34,806 nt of DNA from Patescibacteria group bacterium (GCA_036985875.1 BTQM01000003.1:1-34806), one strand, 5' to 3'. Numbered from the stretch's first letter, positions 6,826-26,017 are shown. The notes: generated by a model from the letters alone, not told the origin. Made by a program: numbers and translations.

Positions 6826-7224
6826 ATGAGTAAAGTTGCCAAAAAAGTACTTATCGTTGAAGACGATGAGAGCATCTCTCGCATCTACGATATTAAACTG
6901 AAAAAAGAGGGCGTGGAGACGCTCATTGTTGCCGATGGGGAAGTAGTGCTTGAAAAACTCCCAGAGTTCAAGCCCGACCTTATTCTGCTTGACCTCATGC
7001 TTCCCAAAAGAGATGGCTTTTGGGTTCTTGAACACATAAGAAAAAGTCCCGACTTTAAAGAGACGCCGGTGGTGGTGCTCTCCAACTTGGGGCAGGAGAG
7101 CGACAAAGAAAAGGCGGAAGCATTGGGTGTGGAAGATTATCTAGTGAAAGCCAATATTTCTATTCGCGAGGCGACAAGGAGGATAATGGGATATTTGAAT
7201 CATTCGGCTGCCAGCGGTAAATAG
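6826..7224 (+). CDS. Single-domain response regulator (receiver only)
   Basis: VLIVEDD, LILLDLMLP, VVVLSN, DYLVK; no output domain. Confidence 0.93.
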   Translation: MSKVAKKVLIVEDDESISRIYDIKLKKEGVETLIVADGEVVLEKLPEFKPDLILLDLMLPKRDGFWVLEHIRKSPDFKETPVVVLSNLGQESDKEKAEALGVEDYLVKANISIREATRRIMGYLNHSAASGK

Positions 7225-7365: not shown

Positions 7366-8073
7366 ATGTTCATAGGACAAAACAAGAAAAAAGGATTCAC
7401 ATTACTAGAGCTTTTGATCGTTATCTCTATCATCGCCATTTTGGCGGTAATAGTCATTTTGGTATTAAATCCAGGCGAGACGCTCAAAAAAGCTCGGGAT
7501 GTGCAGAGAATGTCGGACATGGCGACTATGAAAACTGCTATCGCGCTTATTTTGACCTCAAGTACAACGCCGTATCTTTCAAGTGGAAACTATGACTGTT
7601 TGACGACAGGCACCAGTACAGCGAAGATCTGGTACAGTTCTGAGGTTGCTTCCCCGACATGTACTGCTGATTTACCGGAGGGTGCGGATGCGGATGGAAC
7701 ATATGCGACGACGGGCGCCGGTTGGTGTAGTGCGGGAGGTACTTCGGGCGCAAGTGATACTGACGGAACGGGATGGATACCGATCAAACTATCATGGCTT
7801 CCTGGCGGCTCGCCACTCTCCAATTTGCCACTTGATCCGATAAATGACATCATTGACAGTATTCCGAGCAGTACCGATAAAGTATATCGTTATACATGCC
7901 AGACGACCGCTGGCTCAGGTAAGCCAAGCACTGTATTTGAGATCAATACAATTTTAGAAAGTGAAGCGTTTACTGTCACTGATAATAAAATGACCAAGGA
8001 CGGGGGCGACAACGACAACTATTACGAAGTAGGTACCAATCTGAAACTTTTACCTACGGATACACAGTTTTAA
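7366..8073 (+). CDS. Type IV major pilin candidate 1
   Basis: Class III signal KKG|FTLLELLIVISIIAILA, then ARDVQRMSD helix. Confidence 0.92.
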   Translation: MFIGQNKKKGFTLLELLIVISIIAILAVIVILVLNPGETLKKARDVQRMSDMATMKTAIALILTSSTTPYLSSGNYDCLTTGTSTAKIWYSSEVASPTCTADLPEGADADGTYATTGAGWCSAGGTSGASDTDGTGWIPIKLSWLPGGSPLSNLPLDPINDIIDSIPSSTDKVYRYTCQTTAGSGKPSTVFEINTILESEAFTVTDNKMTKDGGDNDNYYEVGTNLKLLPTDTQF

Positions 8074-8078
8074 ACATC

Positions 8079-8182
8079 GTGTAACTCACACCTTGTAACG
8101 CGTAACCCGAAACTTGCAACACAAAATCCGCCGTAGGCGGATTTTGTGTTGCAAGTTATGAGGTATTGGTTATATGGTATAA
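8079..8182. repeat. Heptamer inverted array element (copy 2) with perfect 22-bp stem
   Basis: GTGTAAC TCACACC TTGTAAC GCGTAAC CCGAAAC TTGCAAC; stem 8111-8132/8136-8157; GTTGCAA GTTATGA GGTATTG GTTATAT GGTATAA. Confidence 0.85.
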
Positions 8183-8196
8183 TATCAACTGTGTTT

Positions 8197-8868
8197 ATGG
8201 TGGAAACTAACGAGAAAAAAGGATTCACACTACTAGAGCTTTTGATCGTGATCTCTATCATCGCCATTTTGGCGGTCATCATCATTTTGATATTAAATCC
8301 CGCTGAAACCTTGAGAAAAGCTCGGGACGTGCAAAGGATGTCTGACATGGCGACTATGAAAATCGCTATCGGGATCATCGTGACGGCGAGCTCAACACCA
8401 TGGCTTAGCGGTACGTCGGGAAACTCACTCTGTTATGGCGGAAGCGGCACGGACTCCATTTGGTACAGTCTTTCAAGTACCGATGGCGTCATTATAGACA
8501 CAACACTAGATGGTGGAACCGGCAGTATTCCTAACTCTGTGCAAGTTACCTCTACAAATCTCAATTTAACCGATGGAAACGGCTGGATACCGGTCAATTT
8601 CGGGTGGCTTCCGGGAAGGTCTCCCATCTCCAACCTTCCTGTTGATCCGATAAACACGATCGGTACTTTGAGTTCCGTGGACAACTACGATCTCGTGTAT
8701 CGCTACGTCTGCAACAGCACAGATACGACATTTGAGATCGATGCGGTATTAGAAAGTATTTCGTTTACATCTAACGACAACAAGATGGCAACTGATGGAG
8801 GAGATAATAGTAATTATTATGAAGTGGGTACGGCGTTGGACATACTGGGAACAGGCGTAAATTTCTAA
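8197..8868 (+). CDS. Type IV major pilin candidate 2 (paralog of pilin 1)
   Basis: ATG at 8197 (MVETNEKKG|FTLLE); N-terminus nearly identical to pilin 1. Confidence 0.92.
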   Translation: MVETNEKKGFTLLELLIVISIIAILAVIIILILNPAETLRKARDVQRMSDMATMKIAIGIIVTASSTPWLSGTSGNSLCYGGSGTDSIWYSLSSTDGVIIDTTLDGGTGSIPNSVQVTSTNLNLTDGNGWIPVNFGWLPGRSPISNLPVDPINTIGTLSSVDNYDLVYRYVCNSTDTTFEIDAVLESISFTSNDNKMATDGGDNSNYYEVGTALDILGTGVNF

Positions 8869-8897
8869 GGCGTATTGAATTTTTTTACGATGACAAT

Positions 8898-9491
8898 ATG
8901 AATTTCTTTCTCAATGTTGTCTTGCCGTGGTTGCCGGTGGTATTTTTTGCCGGTATTTTTTTGTATGTGGCCGTCCGCTACCTCTGGTATCCTAGGCGCA
9001 TCAGATATGTGCCGCTTATTGCCGGTGTCGTATCTTTCCGTATTTTTTACGCTATCTTTCTTTCTGGTACCCAATACTATGTGTGGCTACAGAATGAATT
9101 TACGAAACTTCTCCTGCCTCCGTATCAGCCGATCTCGTACTTCCTGTTCTATTCGTGGGGAAGGTTTTGGTTGAATGCAATGATAATACTTGGTGTGTCG
9201 CTTGTGTTCTGGCTTTTCCTGCGTTCGCTTGCGGTGTGGAAGAAAGATTCTTTTCGGAAGAGTGAGGCGGGACTGGGGCTCCTTATGGCGCTTATTGTTG
9301 GATGGCCTCATGTGGTCATATTCGTGCCCCTCTCTTTTGTTCTTGCGGCTATTATCTCTCTTGCCCGCCTTATCTTTTTTGGAAAAAGCTCCGTCACACT
9401 TGGTACCTCGTTTCTTCTTGCGGCGCTCATTCTTTTTGTGTGGGGAGACGGACTCATAGAATTGTTCAATCTGGGGGTTTTGAGGATATAA
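8898..9491 (+). CDS. Polytopic membrane protein resembling the prepilin peptidase (A24) membrane domain, degenerate
   Basis: 5-6 TMs; SEAGLGLLMALIVGW and VTLGTSFLLAA echo GDxKL...LGW and IPFGPFL; sits between pilins and pilB. Confidence 0.5.
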   Translation: MNFFLNVVLPWLPVVFFAGIFLYVAVRYLWYPRRIRYVPLIAGVVSFRIFYAIFLSGTQYYVWLQNEFTKLLLPPYQPISYFLFYSWGRFWLNAMIILGVSLVFWLFLRSLAVWKKDSFRKSEAGLGLLMALIVGWPHVVIFVPLSFVLAAIISLARLIFFGKSSVTLGTSFLLAALILFVWGDGLIELFNLGVLRI

Positions 9492-9492
9492 T

Positions 9493-9566
9493 CCACAACT
9501 TATAACGTAGAGCTTCGCCCCCGGCGAAGCTCTCTCGGGTTACACGTTACAAGTTATAAGTTATAA
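9493..9566. repeat. Heptamer inverted array element (copy 3)
   Basis: CCACAAC TTATAAC, hairpin AGAGCTTCGCC-CCC-GGCGAAGCTCT, GTTACAC GTTACAA GTTATAA GTTATAA, then pilB ATG. Confidence 0.85.
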
Positions 9567-9567
9567 T

Positions 9568-11286
9568 ATGCTTATGCATATAACTTCCGAAAGATTTCAA
9601 AAGATATTGCTTGATTCTGACATGGTGGATGAGCAAACATTCGCTGATGTACAAAAAGAGGCGCAGCGCTTGAGCCAAACGGTGGAGGACGTTTTGGTGG
9701 GGAGGAAAATAATCACCGAGAAATATTTGGCGGAACTTTTGGGGCCGTACTTTGATGTGCCGTTCGTAGACTTGGGGCATGAGAAAGTTCCTCACGACAC
9801 ACTAGAGCTTGTTTCCGAATCTTACGCTAAGTCTCATCGACTCGTGGTGTTCAAATGGGACGAGAGGAAGAGGATCGCGCATGTAGCGATGTATGACCCC
9901 TTAGACATGGAGACGATAGAGTTTCTGCGTGCCAAGCTCCGCGCATGGGTGGAGCCGTATCTTACGACCGATACAAGTCTCCGATTCGTTCTGCGGCAAT
10001 ACAAGCGCGAGATCGGAAAAGAGTTTAGTGAAATTATTTCAGAGAACGTTAAGAAATCCCTGACGCTTACAGGAGAACCGAACCTTGCAAAAGTTGCCGC
10101 GGCAGTGCCCATCATCACCATTCTGGACAGTATTTTTGAGCACGCAGCCGCTCTAAACGCCTCCGACATTCATTTTGAGCCGATGGAAAAAGAAGTTTTG
10201 ATCAGATACCGAATTGACGGGATATTGCACGAGATGCTTTCTCTCCCGAAAGCTATCGCCCCTATTTTGGTGGCGCGGATAAAAATCCTTGCCAATCTTC
10301 AGATAGACGAGCATCGCATCCCACAAGATGGCCGCTTTAGGTTTGAACTGCCCGATGGCGGCAAGATTGACGTTCGAGTCAACGTTATGCCGGTATTCCA
10401 CGGAGAGAAGGTGGAGGCGCGGCTTTTGAAAAGCGCCGCCCGCCCGCTTTCTTTAAGAGAACTGGGTCTCTCAAAAGACAGCGTCAAGATCATGATGTCG
10501 GAGATCAAAAAGCCGCACGGTATGATATTGGCCACGGGCCCCACGGGGCATGGAAAAACCACGACGCTCTATGCCATATTGCATATATTGAATCGTCCGG
10601 AGGTAAACATCACCACCATCGAAGATCCCATTGAATATCAAATTTCCCGCATTAATCAAACGCAAGTGAATGTGAAAGCGGGTATCACTTTTGCAAACGG
10701 ATTGAGGTCACTCTTGAGGCAGAACCCCGATATAATGATGATCGGGGAAATAAGAGACGCGGAAACGGTAGACATTGCGATCCATTCGGCCTTGACGGGG
10801 CACCTAGTGCTCTCGTCGCTCCACACCAATGATGCTCCCTCTGCCTTGCCGCGGCTTTTGGATATGGGAGCTCCCGCTTTCCTGCTTTCTTCCACGGTCA
10901 ATGTTGTGATCGCCCAGCGCCTTGTCCGCCGCATTTGCAACGCCTGCATTGAGTCGTATCGGATATCTCCAGAGATACAGCGGCTCATTAAAGCGCAGAT
11001 AAAGCTTGTTGGTGATGAACATATCAAAACGATTCCCACTACGCTTTTCAGAGGAAAGGGCTGTAAGATTTGTGGAGAGAGTGGTTTTTCCGGACAGATA
11101 GGCATTTTTGAGATATTGGAAGTGACGGACAAGATCAAGACGCTTGTTTTACGCCAGGCCACCGCTGGTGAGATCAGGAAAGTGGCTGTGGGCGAGGGGA
11201 TGCATACAATGTTTGAAGATGGTTTGCAAAAAGTGCAGCAAGGCATTACCACCATTGAAGAAGTCCTGCGGGTGGTAAGGGAGTGA
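9568..11286 (+). CDS. pilB: Type IV pilus assembly ATPase PilB/GspE
   Basis: ASDIHFEP, PQDGRF, Walker A GPTGHGKTT, TIEDPIEY, LRQNPDIMMIGEIRD, TGHLVLSSLHTN, tetra-Cys RICNAC/GCKIC. Confidence 0.96.
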   Translation: MLMHITSERFQKILLDSDMVDEQTFADVQKEAQRLSQTVEDVLVGRKIITEKYLAELLGPYFDVPFVDLGHEKVPHDTLELVSESYAKSHRLVVFKWDERKRIAHVAMYDPLDMETIEFLRAKLRAWVEPYLTTDTSLRFVLRQYKREIGKEFSEIISENVKKSLTLTGEPNLAKVAAAVPIITILDSIFEHAAALNASDIHFEPMEKEVLIRYRIDGILHEMLSLPKAIAPILVARIKILANLQIDEHRIPQDGRFRFELPDGGKIDVRVNVMPVFHGEKVEARLLKSAARPLSLRELGLSKDSVKIMMSEIKKPHGMILATGPTGHGKTTTLYAILHILNRPEVNITTIEDPIEYQISRINQTQVNVKAGITFANGLRSLLRQNPDIMMIGEIRDAETVDIAIHSALTGHLVLSSLHTNDAPSALPRLLDMGAPAFLLSSTVNVVIAQRLVRRICNACIESYRISPEIQRLIKAQIKLVGDEHIKTIPTTLFRGKGCKICGESGFSGQIGIFEILEVTDKIKTLVLRQATAGEIRKVAVGEGMHTMFEDGLQKVQQGITTIEEVLRVVRE

Positions 11287-11288
11287 TC

Positions 11289-11360
11289 TTGTAACATACA
11301 GGTTGCAGAGGGTTATATATTATAAAGATTGAGTTACAAGTTATTGGTTATATGTTATTT
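11289..11360. repeat. Heptamer array element (copy 4, degenerate)
   Basis: TTGTAAC just after the pilB stop; GTTACAA GTTATTG GTTATAT GTTATTT overlapping the pilC start. Confidence 0.7.
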
Positions 11361-12560
11361 ATCTACGAAGCGACAGACAAGGATGGCGCTCTAGTCAGAG
11401 GGGAGCACCATGCCCGAAATAAAAGAGAAGTAGTGGAGCGTCTAAAGAAACAGGGATTCATCCCCGTTTCCGTGAAAGAAAAAGGGAAGCTGTATATTCA
11501 GAAGATAGGAGGAATTGGGGGGCGTGTCACGGCAATGGATAGAATAGCGCTTGTGCGCAATCTCGCGACAACTATCAAGGCGGGGGTTAGCATATTGGAG
11601 GCGGTGGAAATTTTGATCGCCGATACGCCCAAGGGGATCATGAGAAAAATTCTTGTAAGTGCCAGGGCGGGTTTGCAGAACGGACAGCCGCTCTCTTCGG
11701 TGTTTGAGGCGTACAAGAAGCATTTTCCACCCGTTTTTGTGGGTATGGTGCGTGCGGGCGAGGCGTCCGGGCAGTTGAGCAGGGTCTTGGATGAGTTGGC
11801 GCGCCACCTCGCGAAGGAGTACAATCTGGTCCGCAAGATGCGCTCGGCGCTAGCGTATCCGGTGATCTTGCTAGTGGGCTCAACTGCCGTTGTGGTGCTT
11901 CTTCTGGTATTCATACTGCCGCGTTTGGCAAAGACATTTGCGTCCGCAGGTACGGAACTTCCGGGTCTGACCGTTTTTTTGATAGGGGTTGGGAACGTGT
12001 TGAGCTACAGTCTCCTTCTTGATCTTTTTGTATTGGGAGTGGTCGTTTGGTTTTTTGTCTATGCCCGCAGAATGCCGTGGGGCAGCGCGCTTGTGAATGC
12101 GATAATGTTTCACTTGCCCATTGCTCGGGACTTGGTTAAAAAAATAGCTCTTGTGCGGTTTTCACGCACCTTCGGGAATATTATTGGAAGCGGCATCCCG
12201 ATTCTTGAGGCGTTGGAGCTCTCGGCTGAAGCGGTGGGGAATAATTATTACAAAACCGCTCTCCTGAAAACAAAAGAGGAAGTCAAGAACGGTGTTTCTT
12301 TTTCTGAAGCATTGCGAAAATATCCTCACCTCTTCCCGCGCATGTTTGTGAGTATGGTTGCCGTGGGGGAGAAAACGGGAACGCTTGAGAATATCTTTAA
12401 AAACTTCGCTGATTTTTATGAGGAGGGAGTGGACGCCACCTTGAAGGACTTGACAACGTTTTTGGAACCGCTCCTTTTGGCTTTAATGGGAGTGGTAATC
12501 GGTGTTATTGCCATTTCTGTTCTATTGCCGATTTATCAGCTAGTCGGAAGCCTTGTTTAA
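11352..12560 (+). CDS. pilC: Type IV pilus platform protein PilC/GspF
   Basis: GEASGQL, SALAYP, VGEKTGTLE, LEPLL...LLPIY. Confidence 0.96.
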   Translation: MLFIYEATDKDGALVRGEHHARNKREVVERLKKQGFIPVSVKEKGKLYIQKIGGIGGRVTAMDRIALVRNLATTIKAGVSILEAVEILIADTPKGIMRKILVSARAGLQNGQPLSSVFEAYKKHFPPVFVGMVRAGEASGQLSRVLDELARHLAKEYNLVRKMRSALAYPVILLVGSTAVVVLLLVFILPRLAKTFASAGTELPGLTVFLIGVGNVLSYSLLLDLFVLGVVVWFFVYARRMPWGSALVNAIMFHLPIARDLVKKIALVRFSRTFGNIIGSGIPILEALELSAEAVGNNYYKTALLKTKEEVKNGVSFSEALRKYPHLFPRMFVSMVAVGEKTGTLENIFKNFADFYEEGVDATLKDLTTFLEPLLLALMGVVIGVIAISVLLPIYQLVGSLV

Positions 12561-12574
12561 ATAAGTATCGCGTG

Positions 12575-12660
12575 GTTTGTCTTTTGCGGCAAAAGGCAAA
12601 CAAGAGAGTGCTCTACGCGTACCCGCCATAAGTAATTATGTTATCAGTTATAAGTTATAA
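12575..12660. repeat. Hairpin plus right-arm heptamers (copy 5)
   Basis: GTTTGTCTTTTGC-G-GCAAAAGGCAAAC; GTTATCA GTTATAA GTTATAA encoding the leader MLSVISYK. Confidence 0.7.
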
Positions 12661-13099
12661 GCGGGGCATTACTTTTTTGGAGATTCTTCTTGTGGTAGCG
12701 ATACTTTCCATCCTAGTTTCCATAGGAAGTGCTTCTTATCGGAATTACATAAAGAGCGTTGAACTTGACGGCGTGACGAAGGGCATTATTTTTGATCTTC
12801 GGCAAGCGCGCGCCAAAGCGATGAGCGGCGAAGAGAGGAGTCGTTGGGGGGTGCATCTTGTCAATGGCACCGATGACTATTACGAGTTGTTTCTCACGGA
12901 AAGCGATTACGCGAGCGCCACGGTGACGGCGACGACGTTTCTTTCCGGCGGGATAGCGTTTTCCACGCCCGGCGAGGGAGTCACAAAAGATGTCGTTTTT
13001 TTCAAGATAAGCGGCACCACTACGTCTGAGACTGTGGGGCTAACGTTTGAAGGGGAGACGAGAACGATTACCGTAACAAGCGAAGGCGTGGTGTATTAG
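12638..13099 (+). CDS. Minor pilin, FimU/GspH-like
   Basis: KRG|ITFLEILLVVAIL; DLRQARAKAM. Confidence 0.88.
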   Translation: MLSVISYKRGITFLEILLVVAILSILVSIGSASYRNYIKSVELDGVTKGIIFDLRQARAKAMSGEERSRWGVHLVNGTDDYYELFLTESDYASATVTATTFLSGGIAFSTPGEGVTKDVVFFKISGTTTSETVGLTFEGETRTITVTSEGVVY

Positions 13100-13101
13100 G
13101 A

Positions 13102-13216
13102 ATCTTGTAACATAGAACTTGTAACTTATGATACACAACCGACAACCAACAAAATTTATTTGCCGCGAGCCTGCCAATAGTCAGGCAGGTTATACGTTAC
13201 AAGCTACACGTTATAA
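13102..13216. repeat. Heptamer inverted array element (copy 6)
   Basis: TTGTAAC ATAGAAC TTGTAAC TTATGAT ACACAAC CGACAAC ... CCTGCC-AATAGTCA-GGCAGG ... GTTATAC GTTACAA GCTACAC GTTATAA. Confidence 0.88.
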
Positions 13217-13850
13217 GAGAAGCAGGGGTCAAATACTAGTTGAGACTTTGCTGGCAATCTTTATCGCGGCGCTTGTTGTGCCGCTTGTGGCGCAAATGTT
13301 GTTTACAGGCCTTGAAGGAAGCCGCATTGTCGGACAGCGTGATGGTGCATCGGAGCTTGGGCGGGAAGTGTTTGAAGCGGTAAAGAGCACCGCTTTTGAG
13401 AGATGGCTTGATGTGTACCGGCCGCCGGATGGCACCGGCGATCCTGTTACAAGCAAAGGCGTTTCCAATCACTACTACCCCTCCTTGCAAAACGGTAAAT
13501 GGACGATACTTTCGGGGGACGAGACGGTTGTGGTAGGCGACATTTCCTACACGCGCTACTTCACCATTGACAACGTAAGCCGCGATCCTGCGACTCGCGA
13601 CATTGAGTCTTCTTACACGCTCGCGAACGACGACCCGTCCACGCAAAAGATCACAGTGACGGTAAGCCGGGGGAATAACGAATCCCTCTCGTGGAGCGAA
13701 TACCTCCTGCGGTGGAGAAACAAGATTTGTTATCAGACCGACTGGAGCGGAACCGGCTCCGGCACCACCATCTGCCCCACCACTTTATATGAGAGCGAAA
13801 CCGACACAGATTTTTCCGTCTCCGGCAGTCTAAAAATCACTCCGCTTTAA
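13128..13850 (+). CDS. Minor pilin, PilV/GspI-like, with 34-aa repeat-encoded leader
   Basis: SRG|QILVETLLAIFIAA; YTRYFTI..V.RD and KITVTVS motifs. Confidence 0.85.
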   Translation: MIHNRQPTKFICREPANSQAGYTLQATRYKRSRGQILVETLLAIFIAALVVPLVAQMLFTGLEGSRIVGQRDGASELGREVFEAVKSTAFERWLDVYRPPDGTGDPVTSKGVSNHYYPSLQNGKWTILSGDETVVVGDISYTRYFTIDNVSRDPATRDIESSYTLANDDPSTQKITVTVSRGNNESLSWSEYLLRWRNKICYQTDWSGTGSGTTICPTTLYESETDTDFSVSGSLKITPL

Positions 13851-13995
13851 TTTGCTTTTTATCTTCAACACCCTTTGTTAAAGGATGTTGAACCCGTACA
13901 ATAATACATGAGGAGACAATATGCTAAAGCCTAAATAACCGCTACTTTCAGTACAAAGTGATCCTGAAAAACGATGATTAATTTATCTGAAAAAG

Positions 13996-16900
13996 ATGCC
14001 TAAATATCTACACAAAATATTTATATTTATAATTATCTCAGCCTGGGTATTTAGTGGATACCCTCAGATTTTTAATTTTCCGCCGGAAATTAAGGTGGCC
14101 GCAGCCGCAAGCACATTTAGAACTACCACCTATGAACTTGAAGGTACGGAATTTTCCGGAACCACTTACACCCTCACACTTAACAACAATCTTGCAGCCA
14201 ACTACTTTGCGATGATTGCCGGCGCAAACAGTCAAACAGCTTCTCGCGGGCCTGACGATGATGGTGTGCGCGTTACGGACGATCCTTTTGGTACGGGTTC
14301 ATTCCCCGGTTTGGTGAGCGCAAATCAGATCGAACTTACACGCTCTTCATCTGTCAATAATTGGATAGGATCGGTTACCATCGTTGAATGTTTGGGGGAT
14401 TGCACCACTTCCGGATTTGAATTAAGGGAGGTGAGGGAGGTGGTTTTTTCAGATGGAACAGCAAATACATTACAGACGGTAACTGACACCCTCGCGCAAG
14501 CTCACACATCCCAGACCGTTCCTTTTGGCGGTTTTTTCGGCGGAGGCATGCAGACAACCGGCACAGGATTAAGCAATAATGAGTATGCGGTTACGTTAGG
14601 CGTCCGTATTTACAAAAGTGGGGCTAACCAGATCACGCTTGAGCGTTATGGCGCTCAATCCAGAATCCCCCGAGCGGGTACCATAACCGTATATATTGTT
14701 GAATGGGGGAGTGGGTGGACCGTGCAGAATGTCAATGTAACGGGAACCAATTCAGGAAATGGAATTAACGCAACCGGAGAGTACAATACCGCTTCTATCA
14801 CATCGGTGACGAGAGCCAATACGTGGGTTTGGGCTGCCGGTCATGCAAGAGATGACGGTATCGGAGATGGCGCTTTTGGTCAGGTTGCCACACTTGGCGA
14901 CGGTGTTAGTCAAAATATTAACGAAACTTCCGTTGCGGTGGGAGCTGAAGGCGGACAGATAAGTCCGGGACGGGATTTTCAGGTTTATGTGATGAGTCAT
15001 CCCAGTTTGGCGGTGGATTACCGGTTTAAAGCAGACGGAAATACGGGAAGTTCTTCGGGGTATCAGGAATTAACGTTTGCCGTTGATAGCGCCAATGGTT
15101 CAGAGACTTATGACAACACATCAGGCACCGTTCGTTATACTGAAGGTTACCGAATCCCAATTATCTACACCTCTTCGGCCGGAGGTGGTCAGGCGTATTC
15201 TAGGCCGGTTTGGTCGCCTCGCATAAATGCAGACACGACTCTTCTTTATTGGCGGGCGTACGCGGGACAGCCATTCGCCGCTTGGGCGCAGATAGCTGAC
15301 TTCGCGAATATTACCTTTACCGCCGACGATGTCACCGTCAGCACCAGCGGCACCCAGACTGCCAGTCTAGATATCCCCAGCACGAACCAGTATGTGGGGG
15401 GCACTTTTGCGATCACAGAAAACACAAGTTCCAGAAATGTCACCGGCATCACCATTACGGAGAACGGCACGGTGAACGCTTCAACAAATCTTGACAACAT
15501 TAAACTGCAGTACGATCTTGATACTACAGCGCCCTACGACTGCGCCTCAGAGTCGTGGGCGTCCGGCGATAGCCAATTTGGCGCGACCGATACCGACGGG
15601 TTCAGCGCCGCCAATGGAACATCAGCTTTTACCGGCACGGCAGCGATCTCCACCACCCAGACGATGTGCGTCTATGCGGTGCTGGATGTTCTCTCCGGAG
15701 CCGCCAACAATGAAACGGTTGAGATTGAGATCAGTAATCCTTCAACAGAGGTAACCGTAAGCGCGGGTGCGGTGGGACCGGGTACGGCCGTTGCGCTTTC
15801 CGGGACAACTAATTTAAGTACTAATATCTCCCCTAACACCACACAGTCGTTTCAAGACGGAGTTTCACCCACCGGCAGCTATGCCGGAACAAGAGATACT
15901 TATATTCATGACAATCTGCCCACCACGAACAACGGCTCTGCGACCGAGATCCTCGTTGATGGTAGTGCGTTGGAGCAGTACGGAACCCTTCTCAAGTGGG
16001 ATATCACCGACATTCCCGCGGGGCAGATAGTTCAATCAGCCGTCATTACGCTCACCAGCTTTAATGCTACGAGTGACACCTACTCAGTATATGAAATGCT
16101 GCGCAATTGGGTGGAATCTGAAGCCACGTGGGAGATATATGCCACCGGCAGCAGTTGGCAAACAAACGGCGGAACGGGTGCGCTTGATAGCGGAACTACG
16201 GTCTTTGGCACGATCACCGGAGGAACCGGAGAGAGAACCATCACCTTGAACGCATCCGGAGTGGCTTTGGTTCAGGGATGGGTGAATAATCCGAGCTCTA
16301 ATTACGGGTTCTTTATTGAGAATTATCTTGCGACTGACGGCGCGGATTTTCGCTCCAGAGAATATGCCACCGCATCCTCGCGGCCTAAGCTTACCGTAAC
16401 GTACGGTTCTTCCAGTATCGTTGAGAGCAGAGTTTCCCAGTCAAGCGATGACGCCGAAGAGCAGAATCCTCCGAGCGGCAGTATGTATCTGACGAGTAGC
16501 GATCTTGAATTGATATCGGATGGGTCCACTGATCAGGAAGTCGGCATGCGGTTCCAGAATATAGTCGTACCCCAGGGAGCGATCATTACGAACGCCTATG
16601 TTCAGTTTACCGTTGACGAACTTGATTCGGGTACAACCAACCTTACCATTTACGGTGAGGATATTGATGTGGCGCCAACGTTCACGACAACCGCCGGCAA
16701 CATTACGAACAGGACGAAGACGAGCGCTTCGGTTGCGTGGAACAGTGTGCCGGCATGGACGACGGTTGGCGATGCGGGCACTGACCAACGGACGCCGGAT
16801 ATTACTTCCATTATTCAAGAAATCGTCAACAGGGTGGGGTGGGCAAGCGGCAATTCTCTCGTCGTTATCATTGACGGTACCGGAGAGAGAACCGCGGAAT

Positions 16901-19473
16901 CATACGATGGGGTGCCGACATCCGCACCACTTTTGCGTATAGAGTATGCCGATATCCCCGACGATGTCACCGTCAGCACCAGCGGCACCCAGACTGCCAG
17001 TCTAGATATCCCCAGCACGAACCAGTATGTGGGGGGCACTTTTGCGATCACAGAAAACACAAGTTCCAGAAATGTCACCGGCATCACCATTACGGAGAAC
17101 GGCACGGTGAACGCTTCAACAAATCTTGACAACATTAAACTGCAGTACGATCTTGATACTACAGCGCCCTACGACTGCGCCTCAGAGTCGTGGGCGTCCG
17201 GCGATAGCCAATTTGGCGCGACCGATACCGACGGGTTCAGCGCCGCCAATGGAACATCAGCTTTTACCGGCACGGCAGCGATCTCCACCACCCAGACGAT
17301 GTGCGTCTATGCGGTGCTGGATGTTCTCTCCGGAGCCGCCAACAATGAAACGGTTGAGATTGAGATCAGTAATCCTTCAACAGAGGTAACCGTAAGCGCG
17401 GGTGCGGTGGGACCGGGTACGGCCGTTGCGCTTTCCGGGACAACTAATTTAAGTACTAATATCTCCCCTAACACCACACAGTCGTTTCAAGACGGAGTTT
17501 CACCCACCGGCAGCTATGCCGGAACAAGAGATACTTATATTCATGACAATCTGCCCACCACGAACAACGGCTCTGCGACCGAGATCCTCGTTGATGGTAG
17601 TGCGTTGGAGCAGTACGGAACCCTTCTCAAGTGGGATATCACCGACATTCCCGCGGGGCAGATAGTTCAATCAGCCGTCATTACGCTCACCAGCTTTAAT
17701 GCTACGAGTGACACCTACTCAGTATATGAAATGCTGCGCAATTGGGTGGAATCTGAAGCCACGTGGGAGATATATGCCACCGGCAGCAGTTGGCAAACAA
17801 ACGGCGGAACGGGTGCGCTTGATAGCGGAACTACGGTCTTTGGCACGATCACCGGAGGAACCGGAGAGAGAACCATCACCTTGAACGCATCCGGAGTGGC
17901 TTTGGTTCAGGGATGGGTGAATAATCCGAGCTCTAATTACGGGTTCTTTATTGAGAATTATCTTGCGACTGACGGCGCGGATTTTCGCTCCAGAGAATAT
18001 GCCACCGCATCCTCGCGGCCTAAGCTTACCGTAACGTACGGTTCTTCCAGTATCGTTGAGAGCAGAGTTTCCCAGTCAAGCGATGACGCCGAAGAGCAGA
18101 ATCCTCCGAGCGGCAGTATGTATCTGACGAGTAGCGATCTTGAATTGATATCGGATGGGTCCACTGATCAGGAAGTCGGCATGCGGTTCCAGAATATAGT
18201 CGTACCCCAGGGAGCGATCATTACGAACGCCTATGTTCAGTTTACCGTTGACGAACTTGATTCGGGTACAACCAACCTTACCATTTACGGTGAGGATATT
18301 GATGTGGCGCCAACGTTCACGACAACCGCCGGCAACATTACGAACAGGACGAAGACGAGCGCTTCGGTTGCGTGGAACAGTGTGCCGGCATGGACGACGG
18401 TTGGCGATGCGGGCACTGACCAACGGACGCCGGATATTACTTCCATTATTCAAGAAATCGTCAACAGGGTGGGGTGGGCAAGCGGCAATTCTCTCGTCGT
18501 TATCATTGACGGTACCGGAGAGAGAACCGCGGAATCATACGATGGGGTGCCGACATCCGCACCACTTTTGCGTATAGAGTACATCAACCCGGGTCTGACC
18601 CAGATCCATTACCGTTGGCGCAATGATGACGGCAATGAGGCAAGCGCCACCTGGGCCGCCCTTGAAGATACTGCTTCTGCCACGATCAATAACACCTTGG
18701 TTAGACTCCGGTTTGAGGTTTCCAATGAAGGGTCAGCTAATTCGACTTCCACCGCTTACCGACTGGAGGTTTCAGGCCCTGATCCCTCCTCCTGCGCTGC
18801 TGCCTCCTATGTGCGGGTGGACTCAAGCAGCGACTGGGATATGGCCACCTCAACCTATTTTGCGGATGGGGATCCCACCACCAATGTCTCGGGCGGACTG
18901 ACGGATGAGAATACCACTTTCCTCGCCGGTGAAATGAAAGAGGCCAATGACATCACTTCAGGCATCGTTTTGACTACCACTGAATTTATCGAGATCGAGT
19001 ATGCGTTCAAGTCAACACCAAGCGCCACGAGTGGTGCCCTCTACTGCTTCCGGCTGACCAATGCCGGCACAGCCATCGATATCTATTCCGCCTACGCCAG
19101 AACCACCTTGGGTGGGTATAAGGCCGTCGGGACGCTCGTCTCCGTGGTGTTGGATACCGGCGTTTCAGATGGCGCGGCTTATAATTCCATTTTGTGGAAG
19201 GGCATAATGCCGGCCGGCACAAAGGTGCGGCTGCAGTTGGCTACTTCCAATAGTTCTTCCGGGCCATGGAGTTACATTAGCGGACCAACCTGCTCGTCGG
19301 GCGATTATTATGAGCCGTTGCCCGACCAGCCGGATGAGATCGGTTGCTTCACTTCTCATAATAACAAGCGGTATTTTAAGTATAGGGTAGAGTTGTGCTC
19401 GTCAACTGACTGTATAACTCCCGGTGGTAACACCCCGATCGTCCAAGACGTCGTCGTGAGTTGGTCACCGTGA
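13996..19473 (+). CDS. Large secreted beta-rich adhesin-like protein (DNRLRE/carbohydrate-binding-like modules), possible PilY1 functional analogue
   Basis: 1825-aa ORF, N-terminal signal peptide, Thr/Ser/Gly-rich; DTYI...LLKWD...W.E.EATW...RPKLTVTY and SSDDAEE...GMRF...APLLRIEY modules; inside the minor pilin operon. Confidence 0.8.
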   Translation: MPKYLHKIFIFIIISAWVFSGYPQIFNFPPEIKVAAAASTFRTTTYELEGTEFSGTTYTLTLNNNLAANYFAMIAGANSQTASRGPDDDGVRVTDDPFGTGSFPGLVSANQIELTRSSSVNNWIGSVTIVECLGDCTTSGFELREVREVVFSDGTANTLQTVTDTLAQAHTSQTVPFGGFFGGGMQTTGTGLSNNEYAVTLGVRIYKSGANQITLERYGAQSRIPRAGTITVYIVEWGSGWTVQNVNVTGTNSGNGINATGEYNTASITSVTRANTWVWAAGHARDDGIGDGAFGQVATLGDGVSQNINETSVAVGAEGGQISPGRDFQVYVMSHPSLAVDYRFKADGNTGSSSGYQELTFAVDSANGSETYDNTSGTVRYTEGYRIPIIYTSSAGGGQAYSRPVWSPRINADTTLLYWRAYAGQPFAAWAQIADFANITFTADDVTVSTSGTQTASLDIPSTNQYVGGTFAITENTSSRNVTGITITENGTVNASTNLDNIKLQYDLDTTAPYDCASESWASGDSQFGATDTDGFSAANGTSAFTGTAAISTTQTMCVYAVLDVLSGAANNETVEIEISNPSTEVTVSAGAVGPGTAVALSGTTNLSTNISPNTTQSFQDGVSPTGSYAGTRDTYIHDNLPTTNNGSATEILVDGSALEQYGTLLKWDITDIPAGQIVQSAVITLTSFNATSDTYSVYEMLRNWVESEATWEIYATGSSWQTNGGTGALDSGTTVFGTITGGTGERTITLNASGVALVQGWVNNPSSNYGFFIENYLATDGADFRSREYATASSRPKLTVTYGSSSIVESRVSQSSDDAEEQNPPSGSMYLTSSDLELISDGSTDQEVGMRFQNIVVPQGAIITNAYVQFTVDELDSGTTNLTIYGEDIDVAPTFTTTAGNITNRTKTSASVAWNSVPAWTTVGDAGTDQRTPDITSIIQEIVNRVGWASGNSLVVIIDGTGERTAESYDGVPTSAPLLRIEYADIPDDVTVSTSGTQTASLDIPSTNQYVGGTFAITENTSSRNVTGITITENGTVNASTNLDNIKLQYDLDTTAPYDCASESWASGDSQFGATDTDGFSAANGTSAFTGTAAISTTQTMCVYAVLDVLSGAANNETVEIEISNPSTEVTVSAGAVGPGTAVALSGTTNLSTNISPNTTQSFQDGVSPTGSYAGTRDTYIHDNLPTTNNGSATEILVDGSALEQYGTLLKWDITDIPAGQIVQSAVITLTSFNATSDTYSVYEMLRNWVESEATWEIYATGSSWQTNGGTGALDSGTTVFGTITGGTGERTITLNASGVALVQGWVNNPSSNYGFFIENYLATDGADFRSREYATASSRPKLTVTYGSSSIVESRVSQSSDDAEEQNPPSGSMYLTSSDLELISDGSTDQEVGMRFQNIVVPQGAIITNAYVQFTVDELDSGTTNLTIYGEDIDVAPTFTTTAGNITNRTKTSASVAWNSVPAWTTVGDAGTDQRTPDITSIIQEIVNRVGWASGNSLVVIIDGTGERTAESYDGVPTSAPLLRIEYINPGLTQIHYRWRNDDGNEASATWAALEDTASATINNTLVRLRFEVSNEGSANSTSTAYRLEVSGPDPSSCAAASYVRVDSSSDWDMATSTYFADGDPTTNVSGGLTDENTTFLAGEMKEANDITSGIVLTTTEFIEIEYAFKSTPSATSGALYCFRLTNAGTAIDIYSAYARTTLGGYKAVGTLVSVVLDTGVSDGAAYNSILWKGIMPAGTKVRLQLATSNSSSGPWSYISGPTCSSGDYYEPLPDQPDEIGCFTSHNNKRYFKYRVELCSSTDCITPGGNTPIVQDVVVSWSP
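15323..18581 (+). repeat. Intragenic tandem duplication: 15323-16946 and 16958-18581 (1624 bp each, period 1635 bp = 545 aa)
   Basis: Identical protein text and identical alternative-frame ORFs offset by exactly 1635. Confidence 0.95.
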
Positions 19474-19474
19474 G

Positions 19475-19639
19475 ATCTTGTAACGTAGAACTCGTAACTT
19501 GAAACGTATAACTTATAACCTGTAACTTGTAACTTATGATACACAACCGACAACCAACAAAATTTATTTGCCACAAGCCTGCCGATAGGCAGGTAGGTTA
19601 TATGTTACGAGTTACGAGTTATAAGATTGGGCGTTACAA
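19475..19639. repeat. Heptamer inverted array element (copy 7, longest)
   Basis: 11 left units TTGTAAC GTAGAAC TCGTAAC TTGAAAC GTATAAC TTATAAC CTGTAAC TTGTAAC TTATGAT ACACAAC CGACAAC; CCTGCC-GATA-GGCAGG; GTTATAT GTTACGA GTTACGA GTTATAA ... GTTACAA. Confidence 0.9.
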
Positions 19640-20132
19640 GCGGGGTGTTGGCCTCCTTGAGCTTCTGCTTTATATTGCTATTCTGGCGATCATCATGGTG
19701 GCGATCGCAAATGTGTTTATCCTGCTCTCCCGCGGGCAGGGGCAGGTGGAGTCGCGTACAGAGATGCATTCCCAACTTCGTTTTTCGCTTGCAAAGATGA
19801 CGCATGATCTGAAAGCGGCCTCTGCGGTGACCTCTCCGGCTTCAACATCCACTGCCACCTCCACGCTTACCATGACAATCGGCGCTGATACCGTAACATA
19901 CGATCTGTCCGCCGGTATTTTGCAACGTACACTCAATACAGGTACTCCGGCGCAGGTCACCACGGATACAATTACCGTGGCAACGTCCACTTTCACAAGG
20001 ATCGAAAATACCAACTCTACTTTAGGAAAAACGCTCGTGGGGATTCAGATAGAAATAAGCGCCGACTATAACAGTATGAGTCCGGGTAGCCAATATTCTG
20101 CGAGCAAGAAAACGACCGTCTTGTTGAGATAA
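19536..20132 (+). CDS. Minor pilin, PilW/GspJ-like (alternative start 19602)
   Basis: KRG|VGLLELLLYIAILAII; LAKMTHDLKAA. Confidence 0.86.
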   Translation: MIHNRQPTKFICHKPADRQVGYMLRVTSYKIGRYKRGVGLLELLLYIAILAIIMVAIANVFILLSRGQGQVESRTEMHSQLRFSLAKMTHDLKAASAVTSPASTSTATSTLTMTIGADTVTYDLSAGILQRTLNTGTPAQVTTDTITVATSTFTRIENTNSTLGKTLVGIQIEISADYNSMSPGSQYSASKKTTVLLR

Positions 20133-20134
20133 TA

Positions 20135-20626
20135 ATGAGCATGAACACATCATCTAAAAAACAAAACAGGATACCTCTCATCACCCGTGGTGTCGCCTCG
20201 CTTCTTGCGGTGGTTACACTTGCGCTTTTTGTGTTGGTTGTGGGTTTCAGTATCACCACGTTGAGTGTAAGCGAAAGTCTTGTTTCCATTGGTACCTCGC
20301 AATCTGGAAAAGCGTTTATGTACGCGGAGGACGCCGTGGCGGACGCGCTCCTGCGGATCGCCAGAAAAAATGACTATGTCTGCGACAGTCCCTCACTTCC
20401 TACGGGGTGCTACCCCATTGACTTTGTTTCCGGTGGCTGTGCGAACAACGAAGGGTGTGCGCGGGTGACAGTCTCTTCGGGCGTTGGGTCAAGCGGAAAC
20501 CCGAAAGTCATTGAAGTGGAAGGGCGCGTGAAAGACAATATAAGGAAAATAAAAGTGACTGTGGAATACGGTAGTGCGCTCTACGGCGAGATCGCCACGA
20601 GCACGTGGCAGGAGATCGGGGAGTAG
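20135..20626 (+). CDS. Minor pilin, PilX/GspK-like
   Basis: RG|VASLL without Glu5 (typical of PilX/GspK); KAFMYAE..V.DALLRI; C-terminal WQE. Confidence 0.83.
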   Translation: MSMNTSSKKQNRIPLITRGVASLLAVVTLALFVLVVGFSITTLSVSESLVSIGTSQSGKAFMYAEDAVADALLRIARKNDYVCDSPSLPTGCYPIDFVSGGCANNEGCARVTVSSGVGSSGNPKVIEVEGRVKDNIRKIKVTVEYGSALYGEIATSTWQEIGE

Positions 20627-22838: not shown

Positions 22839-24578
22839 ATGCAAACTATTGTAGTTATTGTTGTTATATCCGCCTCGTTGCTTATTGCAGGTTTTTCTTA
22901 TTTGCGTGCAAAGTCTCTCGGCAAGGAGGCAAGGAAGAAAGAAGAGCAGGTGAGACATCGGATGTATGAGCTTGCGATCTTGAAAGAGATCAGCGACCGT
23001 ATCGGTTATTCTTTGAACGTAGAGAAGATAGTTGATATTATTACCGCTTCCCTAGAGCAGTTCATCCCCCATAGCGCGGCATCTTATATGCTTCTGGGGC
23101 CCGGAAAGATCTTATTCAAAGTGAATCTAAGGAAACCTGTTTCTCCGCTCTTTATTGATGAGGTGCGAGGCAGGATGCTGGACTCGCTCTCCGCGCTCTT
23201 GGAGAAAGATCTTTCCAGAGTGAGTGTTGAAGCCACAGTGGTGGGTGTTTTGACCGACGAGGAAGCGGCGGAATCAGTGAATTCTTTTTTTAACATACCC
23301 CTTGTGATCGGTGGAAATGTTGTTGGCGTACTCACGGTGGCGGATAGTGCAGAGGGGCTCTACAAAGAAGAGGAGATGACGCTCCTCTACAAGATCGTCG
23401 GACAGGCCTCCCGGGCGGTAACCCGTTTGGAGGAGGTGGTGAAGACGGAACAGAGGAAACTTTCCGCGATGGTGGAGAGCATGGCAGACGGGGTGGTAAT
23501 GATCGATAAGGATTATCGAGTGTTGGTTGCGAATCCGTCCGCGAAACGCATCGTGGGTTTTCTGGCGGAAGAAAAGCCGACAATCTTTGATTTCATTGAT
23601 GCTTTGACAGGAGTGTTTGACATAAAAGGAAAACTCGAAGAAGCGTTAAAGACCGGCAACACTCTTGCGATGGACAATGTGGCAGTTGGTGAACGTGTTT
23701 TTCATATTTTGATCTCACCAGTAAGTGGGCACGGGACGAAAAAAACGGAGTTATTTGGCGGAGTGGTAATCTTTCACGATATTACGTATGAAAAAGAGCT
23801 TGAGCAGATGAAAGAGGACTTTATTTCCATGATGGTTCACGAGCTTCGCTCTCCTTTGGACGGCATTAAAAAAATGAGCGAGTTTATGGGAGTGGATCCT
23901 GCGATAAGGGAAGATGAAAAGAGATATAGGGAATATATCAAGCTGATACACGAAGGTTCTTCAGAAATACTTGAGTTGGTAAACGATCTTCTTTACGTTG
24001 CGAAAATAGAATCCGGTAAGTTCGACGTTGATGTGGAACTTGCGGACATAAAGGATATCATCAAGCAGAGAATACGGTTTTTTGAAACTACAGCCAAAGA
24101 TGCTAGAATAGAATTAACCTCGCTTTTTGACAAAAACGCAAAGAGTGAGATACGCATTGACCCGCTTCGAATATCTCAAGCACTCAACAATCTCATCTCA
24201 AACGCGCTCAAATTTACGAAGCCGGGCGGAAGCGTAGTTGTGCAGGTGCTTGCGCACAAGCAGGGGCAGTCTATAGAGAGCGAGGCACAGAAGGTGGGAA
24301 TCAAGTGGTTTCTGAAAGACAAAGAAGAGAAATTGAAAAATTATCCGGACGCCCTTTTCATTGCGGTAACTGATACAGGTGAAGGAATATCAAAGAGCAA
24401 TATGGGGAAATTATTTAATAAGTTCAAGCAATTTGAATCCGTCGTGCGAAGCGGAAGACGCGGGACGGGGCTAGGCCTTGTCATCGCGAAAGGAATTATT
24501 AAAGCACATGGCGGTATTATAGGTGTGGATTCGGAGGAGGGGACAGGAAGCACGTTTTATTTTATACTTAAATCGTAG
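22839..24578 (+). CDS. Histidine kinase (TM-GAF-PAS-HisKA-HATPase)
   Basis: GAF (IPLVIGGNVVGVLTV), PAS (SMADGVVMID...ANPSA), HELRSPL, NLISNALKFT, DTGEGI, GTGLGL. Confidence 0.94.
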   Translation: MQTIVVIVVISASLLIAGFSYLRAKSLGKEARKKEEQVRHRMYELAILKEISDRIGYSLNVEKIVDIITASLEQFIPHSAASYMLLGPGKILFKVNLRKPVSPLFIDEVRGRMLDSLSALLEKDLSRVSVEATVVGVLTDEEAAESVNSFFNIPLVIGGNVVGVLTVADSAEGLYKEEEMTLLYKIVGQASRAVTRLEEVVKTEQRKLSAMVESMADGVVMIDKDYRVLVANPSAKRIVGFLAEEKPTIFDFIDALTGVFDIKGKLEEALKTGNTLAMDNVAVGERVFHILISPVSGHGTKKTELFGGVVIFHDITYEKELEQMKEDFISMMVHELRSPLDGIKKMSEFMGVDPAIREDEKRYREYIKLIHEGSSEILELVNDLLYVAKIESGKFDVDVELADIKDIIKQRIRFFETTAKDARIELTSLFDKNAKSEIRIDPLRISQALNNLISNALKFTKPGGSVVVQVLAHKQGQSIESEAQKVGIKWFLKDKEEKLKNYPDALFIAVTDTGEGISKSNMGKLFNKFKQFESVVRSGRRGTGLGLVIAKGIIKAHGGIIGVDSEEGTGSTFYFILKS

Positions 24579-24650
24579 CCCCTGTTTCTTTATTGGCGCA
24601 AACAAGAATGTAAAATAAATTTTAATAAATCTTAAAGTTGAGAAAATACC

Positions 24651-25061
24651 ATGAATAAAAAACCAGACGTCTCCAAGGCGGCAAAAAAAATTCTCATCAT
24701 AGATGATGACAAGATCTTTTCAAAAGTTCTCAAGGATGCCATGAAGGTGCACAAGGATGGGAAATATACGACCGTACATGCGGTTGATGGTGAAGAGGGA
24801 CTCAGGAAGGCAAAAGAAGAAAAGCCGGATCTGATAGTGCTGGATGTAGTTATGCCCAATGTCGGGGGTCTTGAATTTCTCAAGAATATGAAATCGGATA
24901 AAGACATCCCGAAGATCCCCGTACTTGTCACCTCTCAATATTCAGATATGGAGAAGATAAGCGCGGCTACAGAATTGGGCATCAAGGGATATCTCGTGAA
25001 AGCGGACCATACTCTGGACGAGATCATCAAGAAGATAGAGGATGTGTTGGAGGGGGAATAG
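24651..25061 (+). CDS. Single-domain response regulator (receiver only)
   Basis: ILIIDDD, LIVLDVVMP, GYLVK. Confidence 0.93.
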   Translation: MNKKPDVSKAAKKILIIDDDKIFSKVLKDAMKVHKDGKYTTVHAVDGEEGLRKAKEEKPDLIVLDVVMPNVGGLEFLKNMKSDKDIPKIPVLVTSQYSDMEKISAATELGIKGYLVKADHTLDEIIKKIEDVLEGE

Positions 25062-25122: not shown

Positions 25123-25638
25123 ATGGAACAGAGAAAGGACAAAAAGGAATTAAAGGATGAGCGGCAAGCTAGAAGGCAGCTTTTCAAAAAAATAAAAACA
25201 ATGCTCATTTGGGTACTTGTTTTGGGTGTGCTCGGCGTGGGGATATTTTGGCTTGTGACGCTTCCCAAAGTGCCGCAATCGGCGACCGTTTCGCAGCGCG
25301 GTATCCACTGGCACCCTTCTCTTTCCATCTCCATTAAAGGGGAGGAGGTTGCTATTCCCGGTGGGATCGGTTTGGGGGCGGTGCACTCGCCGATGCATAC
25401 GCATGATCCTGGCGGCATTATCCACCTTGAGTACAGCGGCATTGTCAGGGAAAATGACATCATGATAAAGAACTTCTTTGACACATGGGGAAAAGATTTC
25501 AGTAGAGATATGATTTTGGGAAATAGAGCTGAAGAGGGCGGGACGATAAGAATGTTTGTGGGAGGTGAAGAGAACATGGAATTTGAGAAATACATGATGC
25601 AGGATGGCGATGTGATAGAGATTTTGTACGAGGAGTAA
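25123..25638 (+). CDS. Membrane-anchored His-motif protein of unknown function
   Basis: One TM, HWH and HSPMHTHD.GGIIHLE motifs, C-terminal DGDVIEILY. Confidence 0.8.
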   Translation: MEQRKDKKELKDERQARRQLFKKIKTMLIWVLVLGVLGVGIFWLVTLPKVPQSATVSQRGIHWHPSLSISIKGEEVAIPGGIGLGAVHSPMHTHDPGGIIHLEYSGIVRENDIMIKNFFDTWGKDFSRDMILGNRAEEGGTIRMFVGGEENMEFEKYMMQDGDVIEILYEE

Positions 25639-25675
25639 AGATCGCTCGGACTATTCTTTTTTCAAACGTGCTCGC

Positions 25676-25832
25676 GGTGAAAGGAAATTACAGTCGGTTC
25701 GTCACAAAAAATCTATAACTCGCCCCAAGGGCTCAAACAGATAAATTTTCACCCACAGGGCACAGGTCTATTCACCTCCTTAATTTCTCTTTCACCTACC
25801 GCCTGCCTGTGCGTGTACGCACGCAGACAGGC
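25676..25832. other. Nested stem-loop non-coding element (structured RNA or MITE/REP-like)
   Basis: GGTGAAAGGAAATTA pairs imperfectly with TAATTTCTCTTTCACC; inner AACTCGCCCCAAGGGCTCAAACA; trailing GCCTGCCTGTGCGTG...CACGCAGACAGGC. Confidence 0.5.
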
Positions 25833-26017
25833 AATGCTGGCAAAAAGAGAGAGGGGCTCGCTTAGTCGGAGGAGAACAGTCAGATTTTCCTATTCGTCCC
25901 CTAGGTCCACCCTAGGGGAACTTTGCTCTACTAAAATAGTTGAGTGTTTCTGTTTTTTCCCAGAAAAACTCCCGCAATAGTTGTAGGGGCTTGAATATGC
26001 GCAATAAGCCGAAATCA

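Follow-up and report, generated by a model that had tools for sequence, protein, structure and literature searches.

The window analysed here is a stretch of 34,806 nt from a Patescibacteria group bacterium (GCA_036985875.1, BTQM01000003.1), which is contig C3 of an assembly of 699,441 nt in 55 contigs (93.8% complete). It contains a type IV pilus operon (7366–20626), within which an exact 49-bp direct repeat brackets the genes of a PilV-like minor pilin and of a giant protein; an earlier note on this DNA had interpreted the bracketed interval as a swappable tip-adhesin module. The operon shows the features of a type IVa pilus operon, namely PilB (9568–11286; Pfam T2SSE), PilC (11352–12560; T2SSF) and class III signal pilins (N_methyl) in the order FimT-PilV-PilW-PilX, and the identical order was found in G056 and other genomes. 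The names of the minor pilins were assigned from gene order. All genes of the operon described here lie on the plus strand. The minor pilin genes comprise one in the FimT/PilH position (12638–13099), one in the PilV/PilI position (13128–13850; 240 amino acids, weak N_methyl match, E 0.0099), one in the PilW/PilJ position (19536–20132; found by open reading frame (ORF) and Pfam scan) and one in the PilX/PilK position (20135–20626; assigned from gene order and likeness to relatives, without a Pfam match). The gene of the giant protein, a candidate tip adhesin of 1825 amino acids, is located between the PilV-like and PilW-like genes (13996–19473). Named relatives of the PilV-like pilin belong mostly to Parcubacteria and other Patescibacteria; the relatives are mostly about 210 amino acids long and have short leaders.

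The 49-bp repeat is the core of two hairpin elements

The two copies of the repeat, 13116–13164 and 19524–19572 (both plus strand), are identical and offset by 6408 nt, and beyond these 49 nt the exact match does not continue in either direction. A blastn search of the assembly returned only these two full copies of the core. Both elements open with ATCTTGTAACRTAGAACT, at 13102 and 19475, as the earlier note had stated, and this opening has 2 matches genome-wide. The shorter opening ATCTTGTAAC occurs three times in the assembly (11286, 13102 and 19475), each time right after a stop codon at an operon junction, which points to copying between neighbours. The result also showed that the core is embedded in a gapless 115-bp repeat (13104–13218 and 19512–19626) that is 88% identical. 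None of its 14 mismatches falls within the core, and the 54 nt to the right of the core contain 10 of them; given an even scatter of 14 mismatches, a mismatch-free run of 49 nt has P = 0.0027.

Each copy is built in a 7-nt register, with a TTGTAAC-type left arm, an A/C-rich stretch with an ATG, a GCCTGCC..GGCAGG palindrome and a GTTACAA-type right arm. The left arms differ by 35 nt, equal to five whole 7-mers, copy 2 being the longer. Folding showed that copy 1 (13101–13218, plus strand) forms a hairpin of −30.4 kcal/mol (z −4.8; 0 of 200 shuffles were equally stable), with an A/C-rich loop of 37 nt containing the ATG, and that copy 2 (19475–19626, plus strand) forms a hairpin of −46.4 kcal/mol (z −6.7). 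Copy 1 encodes most of the 33-residue prepilin leader of the PilV-like pilin, and copy 2 encodes the leader of the PilW-like pilin, which starts at ATG 19536 or ATG 19602. The claim that each repeat contains the start codon of its pilin gene holds for the PilV-like gene, in which the core ATG is the sole ATG, GTG or TTG ahead of the cleavage site; in the PilW-like gene another in-frame ATG follows at 19602, beyond the core, and the start of this gene may therefore fall outside the repeat. As claimed, the two pilins are otherwise unrelated (E 2.9 for the mature proteins), and a crossover in the core would keep the PilW-like gene in frame, since 6408 equals 3 × 2136 and the ATG is identically placed in both copies.

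The hairpins belong to a family dispersed through the genome

Arrays of at least three 7-mer units were counted in the assembly and in three order-3 Markov genomes. The result showed 34 arrays in the assembly compared to 2, 0 and 2 in the Markov genomes; the array pattern was derived from arrays in the window, and some of the 34 rows represent two arms or two strands of one element. Almost all of the 24 sites viewed were intergenic or at gene starts, and many were built as two arms around a palindrome. In the same operon as the repeat pair, sister elements are present at 8071, 9486, 11286 and 12628. These are a hairpin between two major-pilin-like genes (8071–8197; z −8.7), a hairpin before pilB (9486–9567; z −4.9), a degenerate element at the pilB-pilC junction (11286–11360), which has the ATCTTGTAACATA opening as in copy 1 and folds no better than shuffles (z +0.3), and a half element, a 7-mer array (12628–12661), within the leader of the FimT-position pilin. 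Four of the five operon elements folded gave z −4.8 to −8.7, and dyad symmetry was present. These results show that both repeats are sister copies of a hairpin family that is dispersed through the genome and found at most operon junctions.

The repeat pair stands far above chance, yet it is ordinary for this genome. Among interior repeat pairs of at least 145 bits and less than 700 nt (400 nt at contig ends excluded), it ranked 23rd of 23, and it is one of eight interior same-contig direct pairs of at least 80 bits. Another such pair (129 bp, 88% identity, exact core of 67 bp) encloses a 4-kb stretch in which a tRNA-Ile gene and small genes are located, and two further direct pairs bracket genes that we take, by eye, to be metK and EF-G.

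REP/BIME-type palindromes occur as many short intergenic hairpin copies with near-identical sisters, and are incidental substrates for rearrangement. The family described here likewise consists of many hairpins between genes; unlike REP/BIME, its arms are 7-nt periodic and no link to a Y1 transposase is apparent. The assembly contains one Y1 transposase (L223, contig C40 of the assembly (G000), 469–1110), with a short GGACACTCGGTGTCC-type palindrome on either side of it. This is a REP-associated arrangement, and its sequence is unrelated to the heptamer hairpins. A four-helix-bundle gene (PF05635) was considered as a source of the heptamer arms, and no such gene was found in the assembly.

The closest published description that we found concerns the intergenic TAACTGA heptamers reported from Beggiatoaceae, Cyanobacteria and Bacteroidetes (MacGregor, 2015; PMC4679880). 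The two families have similar 7-nt units (here TAACTTG/TAACTTA on one strand) with several units per set, are mostly intergenic and adjoin start codons, and vary in 7-nt length steps. They differ in that the TAACTGA repeats form 169 direct sets and one inverted set, whereas the arms here are inverted around a palindrome, and in that the arrays here are partly translated as prepilin leaders. A literature search covering titles and abstract openings, in a collection with few subscription journals, returned no account of heptamer or palindromic repeats from Patescibacteria.

Other dispersed palindromes are also abundant in this genome. A different dispersed repeat of 170–240 nt is present at 25635–25873 of the window, with copies on contigs C5, C10, C37 and C12, and contains a CCTGCCTGTGCGTGTACGCACGCAGACAGG palindrome. 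Perfect or near-perfect palindromes at 28954–28975, 29045–29066 and 29511–29542 flank a gene for a 133-residue Trp-repressor-like protein (29107–29508) and are possibly its operators. A second long exact direct repeat, of 532 bp, is located on contig C14 of the assembly (at 116 and 905), close to the contig end.

The bracketed genes are predicted to join through a split jelly-roll

The last 118 residues of the giant protein form a conserved docking domain (19117–19470, plus strand), which in relatives is conserved just upstream of the PilW-like gene. Among 120 genomes of the order, 26 were found to encode this domain, which in most cases terminates a prepilin of about 600 amino acids. In fused relatives it is continuous with a segment corresponding to the C-terminal tail of the window pilin (residues 194–240; 13707–13847, plus strand). 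Two such relatives (L110 and L124) are pilins of 304–310 amino acids that run from head to tail and straight into the docking domain, and in longer fused relatives differing cargo is inserted exactly at the join of tail and docking domain. The comparison covered 117 distinct complete pilin ORFs. Fusion to the docking domain was seen in 11, and in 47, counting the window pilin, a separate gene downstream carries the domain. Where a split pilin has a tail match (43 cases), it stops 0–3 residues past the tail, and 43 of the 47 partner genes (220–1945 amino acids) start with a hydrophobic stretch by a simple count. At the level of sequence, these fused and split forms indicate that the pilin tail and the docking domain are the N-terminal and the larger part, respectively, of one jelly-roll split over two genes, related by fusion or fission.

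The docking domain was modelled as a beta-sandwich with a predicted local distance difference test (pLDDT) score of 96.5. Its structural matches are middling: the best, a phage tail protein (9nwi), has Z 7.9 with a root-mean-square deviation of 2.1 over 95 aligned residues, and none has Z of at least 8; the best Foldseek match has E 0.054. Discoidin-type chains match with Z 5.5–6.7 and align from about their residue 50 onward, which would fit a docking domain that is missing its first ~45 residues. Complex prediction of pilin residues 58–240 with the docking domain scored 0.76 in three runs, compared to 0.00 for the best of three controls; the mark set for this score is reached by 116 of 157 solved complexes and by 2 of 215 mismatched pairs. 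The contacts agreed to at least 87% and the partner pLDDT was at least 89. The predicted interface is formed by pilin residues 194–240 with residues 1–15 and 106–118 of the docking domain, that is, its first and last strands. A short fused relative gave a poor fold (pLDDT 49, 4 sequences) and was not used. The model thus predicts that pilin and giant protein join through the split jelly-roll. The literature search described above returned no description of a split jelly-roll at Patescibacteria pilus tips.

Variation among relatives lies inside the bracketed interval

Loci of relatives were obtained by an alignment-based search of genome contigs, a single-protein locus search having given none. 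Of 144 loci with the pilin, 27 reach the PilW-like gene, and removal of the window and of a truncation artefact (L161) left 25, some of which are duplicates or near-duplicates. The result showed that in all 25 the pilin gene is followed by a variable stretch, the docking domain and then the PilW-like gene, and that their two leader regions share only 7–12 nt; three additional loci have the same gene order, with a shared stretch of 7–11 nt. In all seven genomes of this operon type cut from the PilW or docking-domain side (G056, G074, G241, G385, G309, G345 and G358), the gene upstream of the PilW-like gene is the docking-domain gene and never fimT, with one extra large gene between the two in G241. 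The earlier note had suggested looking in relatives for different genes between the same repeats, and the 28 relative loci carry no such repeat. The idea of a swappable module was supported in part, in that the two bracketed genes look like one functional unit, from the natural fusions and the complex prediction, and in that the content between PilV and PilW differs strongly among relatives (span 1,988–10,389 nt), but a role of the repeat in defining or driving a swap was not supported. The two ends of the interval are conserved and the variable part is internal, a pattern that the note itself had named as speaking against variation bounded by the repeats. In these relatives, all of them distant, the slot does vary, as the earlier note had supposed, but the limits of the variable part fall within the 6408-bp interval, and no repeat accompanies it.

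Pairwise identities over 19–25 loci showed that the pilin tracks the flanking genes (Spearman 0.73–0.81) as well as it tracks the docking domain (0.70). A FastTree tree gave a hint that the window pilin groups apart from its flanks; the grouping was absent from a careful tree, and approximately unbiased (AU) tests gave p 0.25 for the pilin and 0.063 for the docking domain.

A scan of the 29 main window ORFs (of 108 listed) gave no match to a recombinase family. RecA, one tyrosine recombinase and the Y1 transposase are encoded on contigs other than that of the window, and neither a resolvase nor an IS110/Piv-type gene was found in the 93.8% complete assembly. Nor was a spare cassette found in it, in the form of a second pilin (beyond the leader match in the PilW-like gene) or a second docking domain. 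If the interval were deleted, the set of four core minor pilins would be reduced to three, a loss and not a swap.

Sequencing depth was taken from one public run of three (X1, as contigs only), which holds 0.97 of the stretch's words and is possibly its source. Contig depths were 12.3, 12.8 and 13.6 outside the interval and 14.0, 13.7 and 16.8 inside (length-weighted 12.8 and 14.1). The earlier note had suggested looking for a coverage step at the borders. There is no drop inside the interval, and so no large deleted subpopulation is apparent, the depth being one figure per contig from one run and a circle kept in the same cells leaving it unchanged. No rearranged joints were seen among the X1 contigs listed, which break at the repeat and from which rare variants are dropped.

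In shufflons and similar systems, such as the R64 PilV shufflon with Rci and the Piv inversion of Moraxella, the sites are inverted, a recombinase is linked to them and alternative segments are available. The present locus is like them in having repeated sites near pilus tip protein genes, and unlike them in that none of these three features was found. Within the same scope as above, the literature search returned no description of repeat-mediated adhesin exchange matching the locus.

Interpretation and alternative explanations

Taken together, we think it probable that the repeats are recently matched sister copies of a dispersed hairpin and not programmed cassette borders, and that the bracketed genes dock through the split jelly-roll. 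One hairpin copy most likely arose with its neighbour in the operon as template. The arms would subsequently have grown or shrunk by entire 7-mers, and the perfect 49-bp core may be the outcome of a later non-crossover (conversion-like) exchange or of a local constraint. The copies form the 5′ ends of the two minor pilin genes and encode their cleavable leaders; like other repeat pairs of the genome, they may by accident allow deletions or duplications of the RecA type. Modularity would reside at the protein level, inside the interval, with jelly-roll halves on the pilin tail and on the C-terminus of the secreted protein and variable cargo between them. The two halves are predicted to re-associate by fold complementation, and would hold the putatively adhesive cargo on the pilus tip.

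Several points weigh against this interpretation. The mobilising enzyme of the hairpins was not identified in the assembly. The pair is the best of 324 pilin leader pairs in 96 loci (145 bits, compared to 66 for the runner-up), and the genes bracketed are precisely those of the pilin and of its predicted partner. Repeated recombination at the site would also be expected to leave a perfect core inside a diverged repeat. The closest pilin relatives are about 50% identical and no close strain was found, and a strain-level swap cannot be seen at this distance, since the behaviour of close strains is not visible in distant relatives. With regard to docking, 59 of the 117 pilin ORFs are without a docking domain in their locus (47 with less than 9.5 kb downstream and 12 with more). 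In addition, the complex was folded with alignments that we built ourselves, for which the calibration is only approximate, and the halves of a split gene would tend to pass the complex test by likeness to the whole domain; the prediction therefore supports binding without demonstrating it.

The points concerning the repeat bear on the proposal that the two copies are functional recombination sites, at which RecA or an unlinked recombinase excises, amplifies or re-integrates the pilin and the giant protein and in this way changes the pilus tip. Such sites would be in keeping with repeats that flank exactly the pilin and its predicted partner, that leave the PilW-like gene in frame after a crossover, that are the closest of the 324 leader pairs and whose core is significantly more alike than its flanks (P = 0.0027). 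RecA and one tyrosine recombinase are present in the assembly, and with two other pilC genes the pilus is possibly dispensable. However, the 28 relative loci have no repeat and their variable part is internal, a single pilin, a single docking domain and neither a resolvase nor an IS110/Piv-type enzyme were found in the 93.8% complete assembly, contig depth does not drop inside the interval (14.1 compared to 12.8, per contig in one run), and pilin identities track the flanking genes as well as the docking domain. We consider this proposal unlikely, and give equally little credence to a variant in which the hairpins in two neighbouring pilin leaders were recruited as recombination handles, so that pilin and cargo would be lost, duplicated or replaced together with no dedicated recombinase.

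The identity of the core could also reflect selection on a shared translation-start or regulatory element that matches the expression of the two minor pilins, recombination being uninvolved now. The core is more conserved than the arms and forms the mostly unpaired hairpin loop with its ATG, and a translational role was proposed for TAACTGA heptamers just upstream of start codons by MacGregor (2015; PMC4679880). This explanation seems doubtful to us, as there is no further copy of the core in the assembly, a 24-nt part of it has 0 exact matches in metagenome contigs, relatives have the same operon without the core, the PilW-like gene has an alternative ATG outside it, and promoter and terminator scans gave results at chance level. 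An assembly artefact, in which one sequence was pasted in two places, is very improbable. X1 contigs break at both copies, but in both places the contigs coming from either side stop 30 nt into the copy, as expected of a real two-copy repeat in a 31-mer graph; moreover, 14 mismatches and a difference of five 7-mers distinguish the flanks, and both frames are open.

Under the reading of the repeats as matched sister hairpins, the cassette claim carries little weight, because the repeat is explained by a family common in the genome. Among candidates for host recognition in Patescibacteria, type IV pili are foremost. The split jelly-roll would provide a concrete way in which a protein exported by a signal peptide (220 to 1945 residues, with freely exchanged cargo) is mounted on the pilus tip, no PilY1-type propeller being needed. 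The split domain would also point to the likely host-binding gene in such operons, and would place the site of cargo exchange between the pilin tail and the docking domain.

Comparison with known pilus-tip systems

Like PilC/PilY1, the giant protein has a putative Sec-type signal (a hydrophobic N-terminus, by eye and by a simple count), no prepilin peptide and linkage to minor pilins. No PilC/PilY1 Pfam match and no sign of the C-terminal beta-propeller were found in the 1825-residue protein, and its last 118 residues model as a beta-sandwich. According to Ellison et al. (2026; PMC13533445), PilC/PilY1 docks on PilK-family minor pilins by C-terminal beta-strand addition. Both systems have a large Sec-exported non-pilin with variable N-terminal cargo that is held, or here predicted to be held, on a minor pilin by completion of beta structure, and in both cis (fused) and trans (split) forms occur. 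In PilC/PilY1, as described there, the last ~10 residues of an adhesin that ends in a beta-propeller complete the sheet of a PilK/PilX pilin, whereas in our model the tail of about 45 residues of a PilV/PilI-position pilin would complete the 118-residue jelly-roll of the cargo protein. The word Patescibacteria is absent from the main text of that report. The docking modelled here would be a variant of PilC/PilY1 strand addition and not a member of that system, in that there is no propeller, the pilin position is another one and the pilin would donate to the cargo domain.

In Saccharibacteria, two type IV pilus systems (T4P-1 and T4P-2) have been described, one of which is dispensable, and large accessory domains were proposed as host-binding tips (PMC11623550). 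The likeness to the present genome extends to several pilus systems per genome, core minor pilins PilV/W/X and large accessory domains; unlike here, the adhesin proposed there is the pilin PilX2 with a C-terminal propeller. The word recombination is absent from the main text of that paper.

The giant protein and its internal duplication

The giant protein begins with a Sec-type hydrophobic stretch, as read by eye. A Pfam scan of the whole protein gave Disaggr_repeat (E 2.7e-9) and a weak match to CBM96. Residues 1–990 match 467 proteins, and among the 119 listed besides the protein itself none covers more than 44% of this part in its best local alignment. By these matches, the protein is a mosaic of widely shuffled extracellular domains. 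From its position, its build and the weak Disaggr_repeat and CBM96 matches, we infer that it is an adhesin. Sequence search identified no solved relative of residues 36–988, and an ESM Atlas search returned unnamed clusters only (recognition 2284, below the mark).

A three-domain block within the gene is duplicated exactly, in tandem and in frame over 1624 bp, with copy 1 at 15323–16946 (residues 443–984) and copy 2 at 16958–18581 (residues 988–1529), both on the plus strand. In the X1 data, the collapsed contig of this block has a depth of 27.1 compared to 13.7–14 beside it, 1.96 times that of its neighbours, which is consistent with two real copies. The duplication is a far larger substrate for recombination or length variation than the 49-bp repeat.

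Genomic setting of the operon

The genome of 0.70 Mb contains three pilC genes, on contigs C3, C11 and C14, and the presence of two beyond the window's own implies that the window pilus may be dispensable. The window operon is 52–65% identical (PilC, PilB) to one operon in another family. In three genomes of the same family (85–98% complete) there was no close match to the operon, with pilC at 30–34% identity, the docking domain in none of the three and the PilW-like gene in none of the three. Taken with the match in another family, this suggests patchy gain or loss of the operon.

The upstream part of the operon, annotated by ORF and Pfam scan, comprises two tandem major-pilin-like genes (7366–8073 and 8146–8868) and a gene for a membrane protein (8898–9491). 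The 5′ 176–198 nt of the two major-pilin-like genes are 82–85% identical, and the strongest hairpin element lies between them. At 20554–20611, the 3′ end of the PilX-position gene, run X1 has a minor contig of 118 nt with 13 differences and a depth of 4.4, compared to about 8 for the remainder, which represents either a second allele patch or a relative within the sample. The operon is flanked on each side by a sensor kinase with a single-domain response regulator (4357–7224 and 22839–25061), and in G056 a response regulator is likewise located immediately upstream of the pilin gene.

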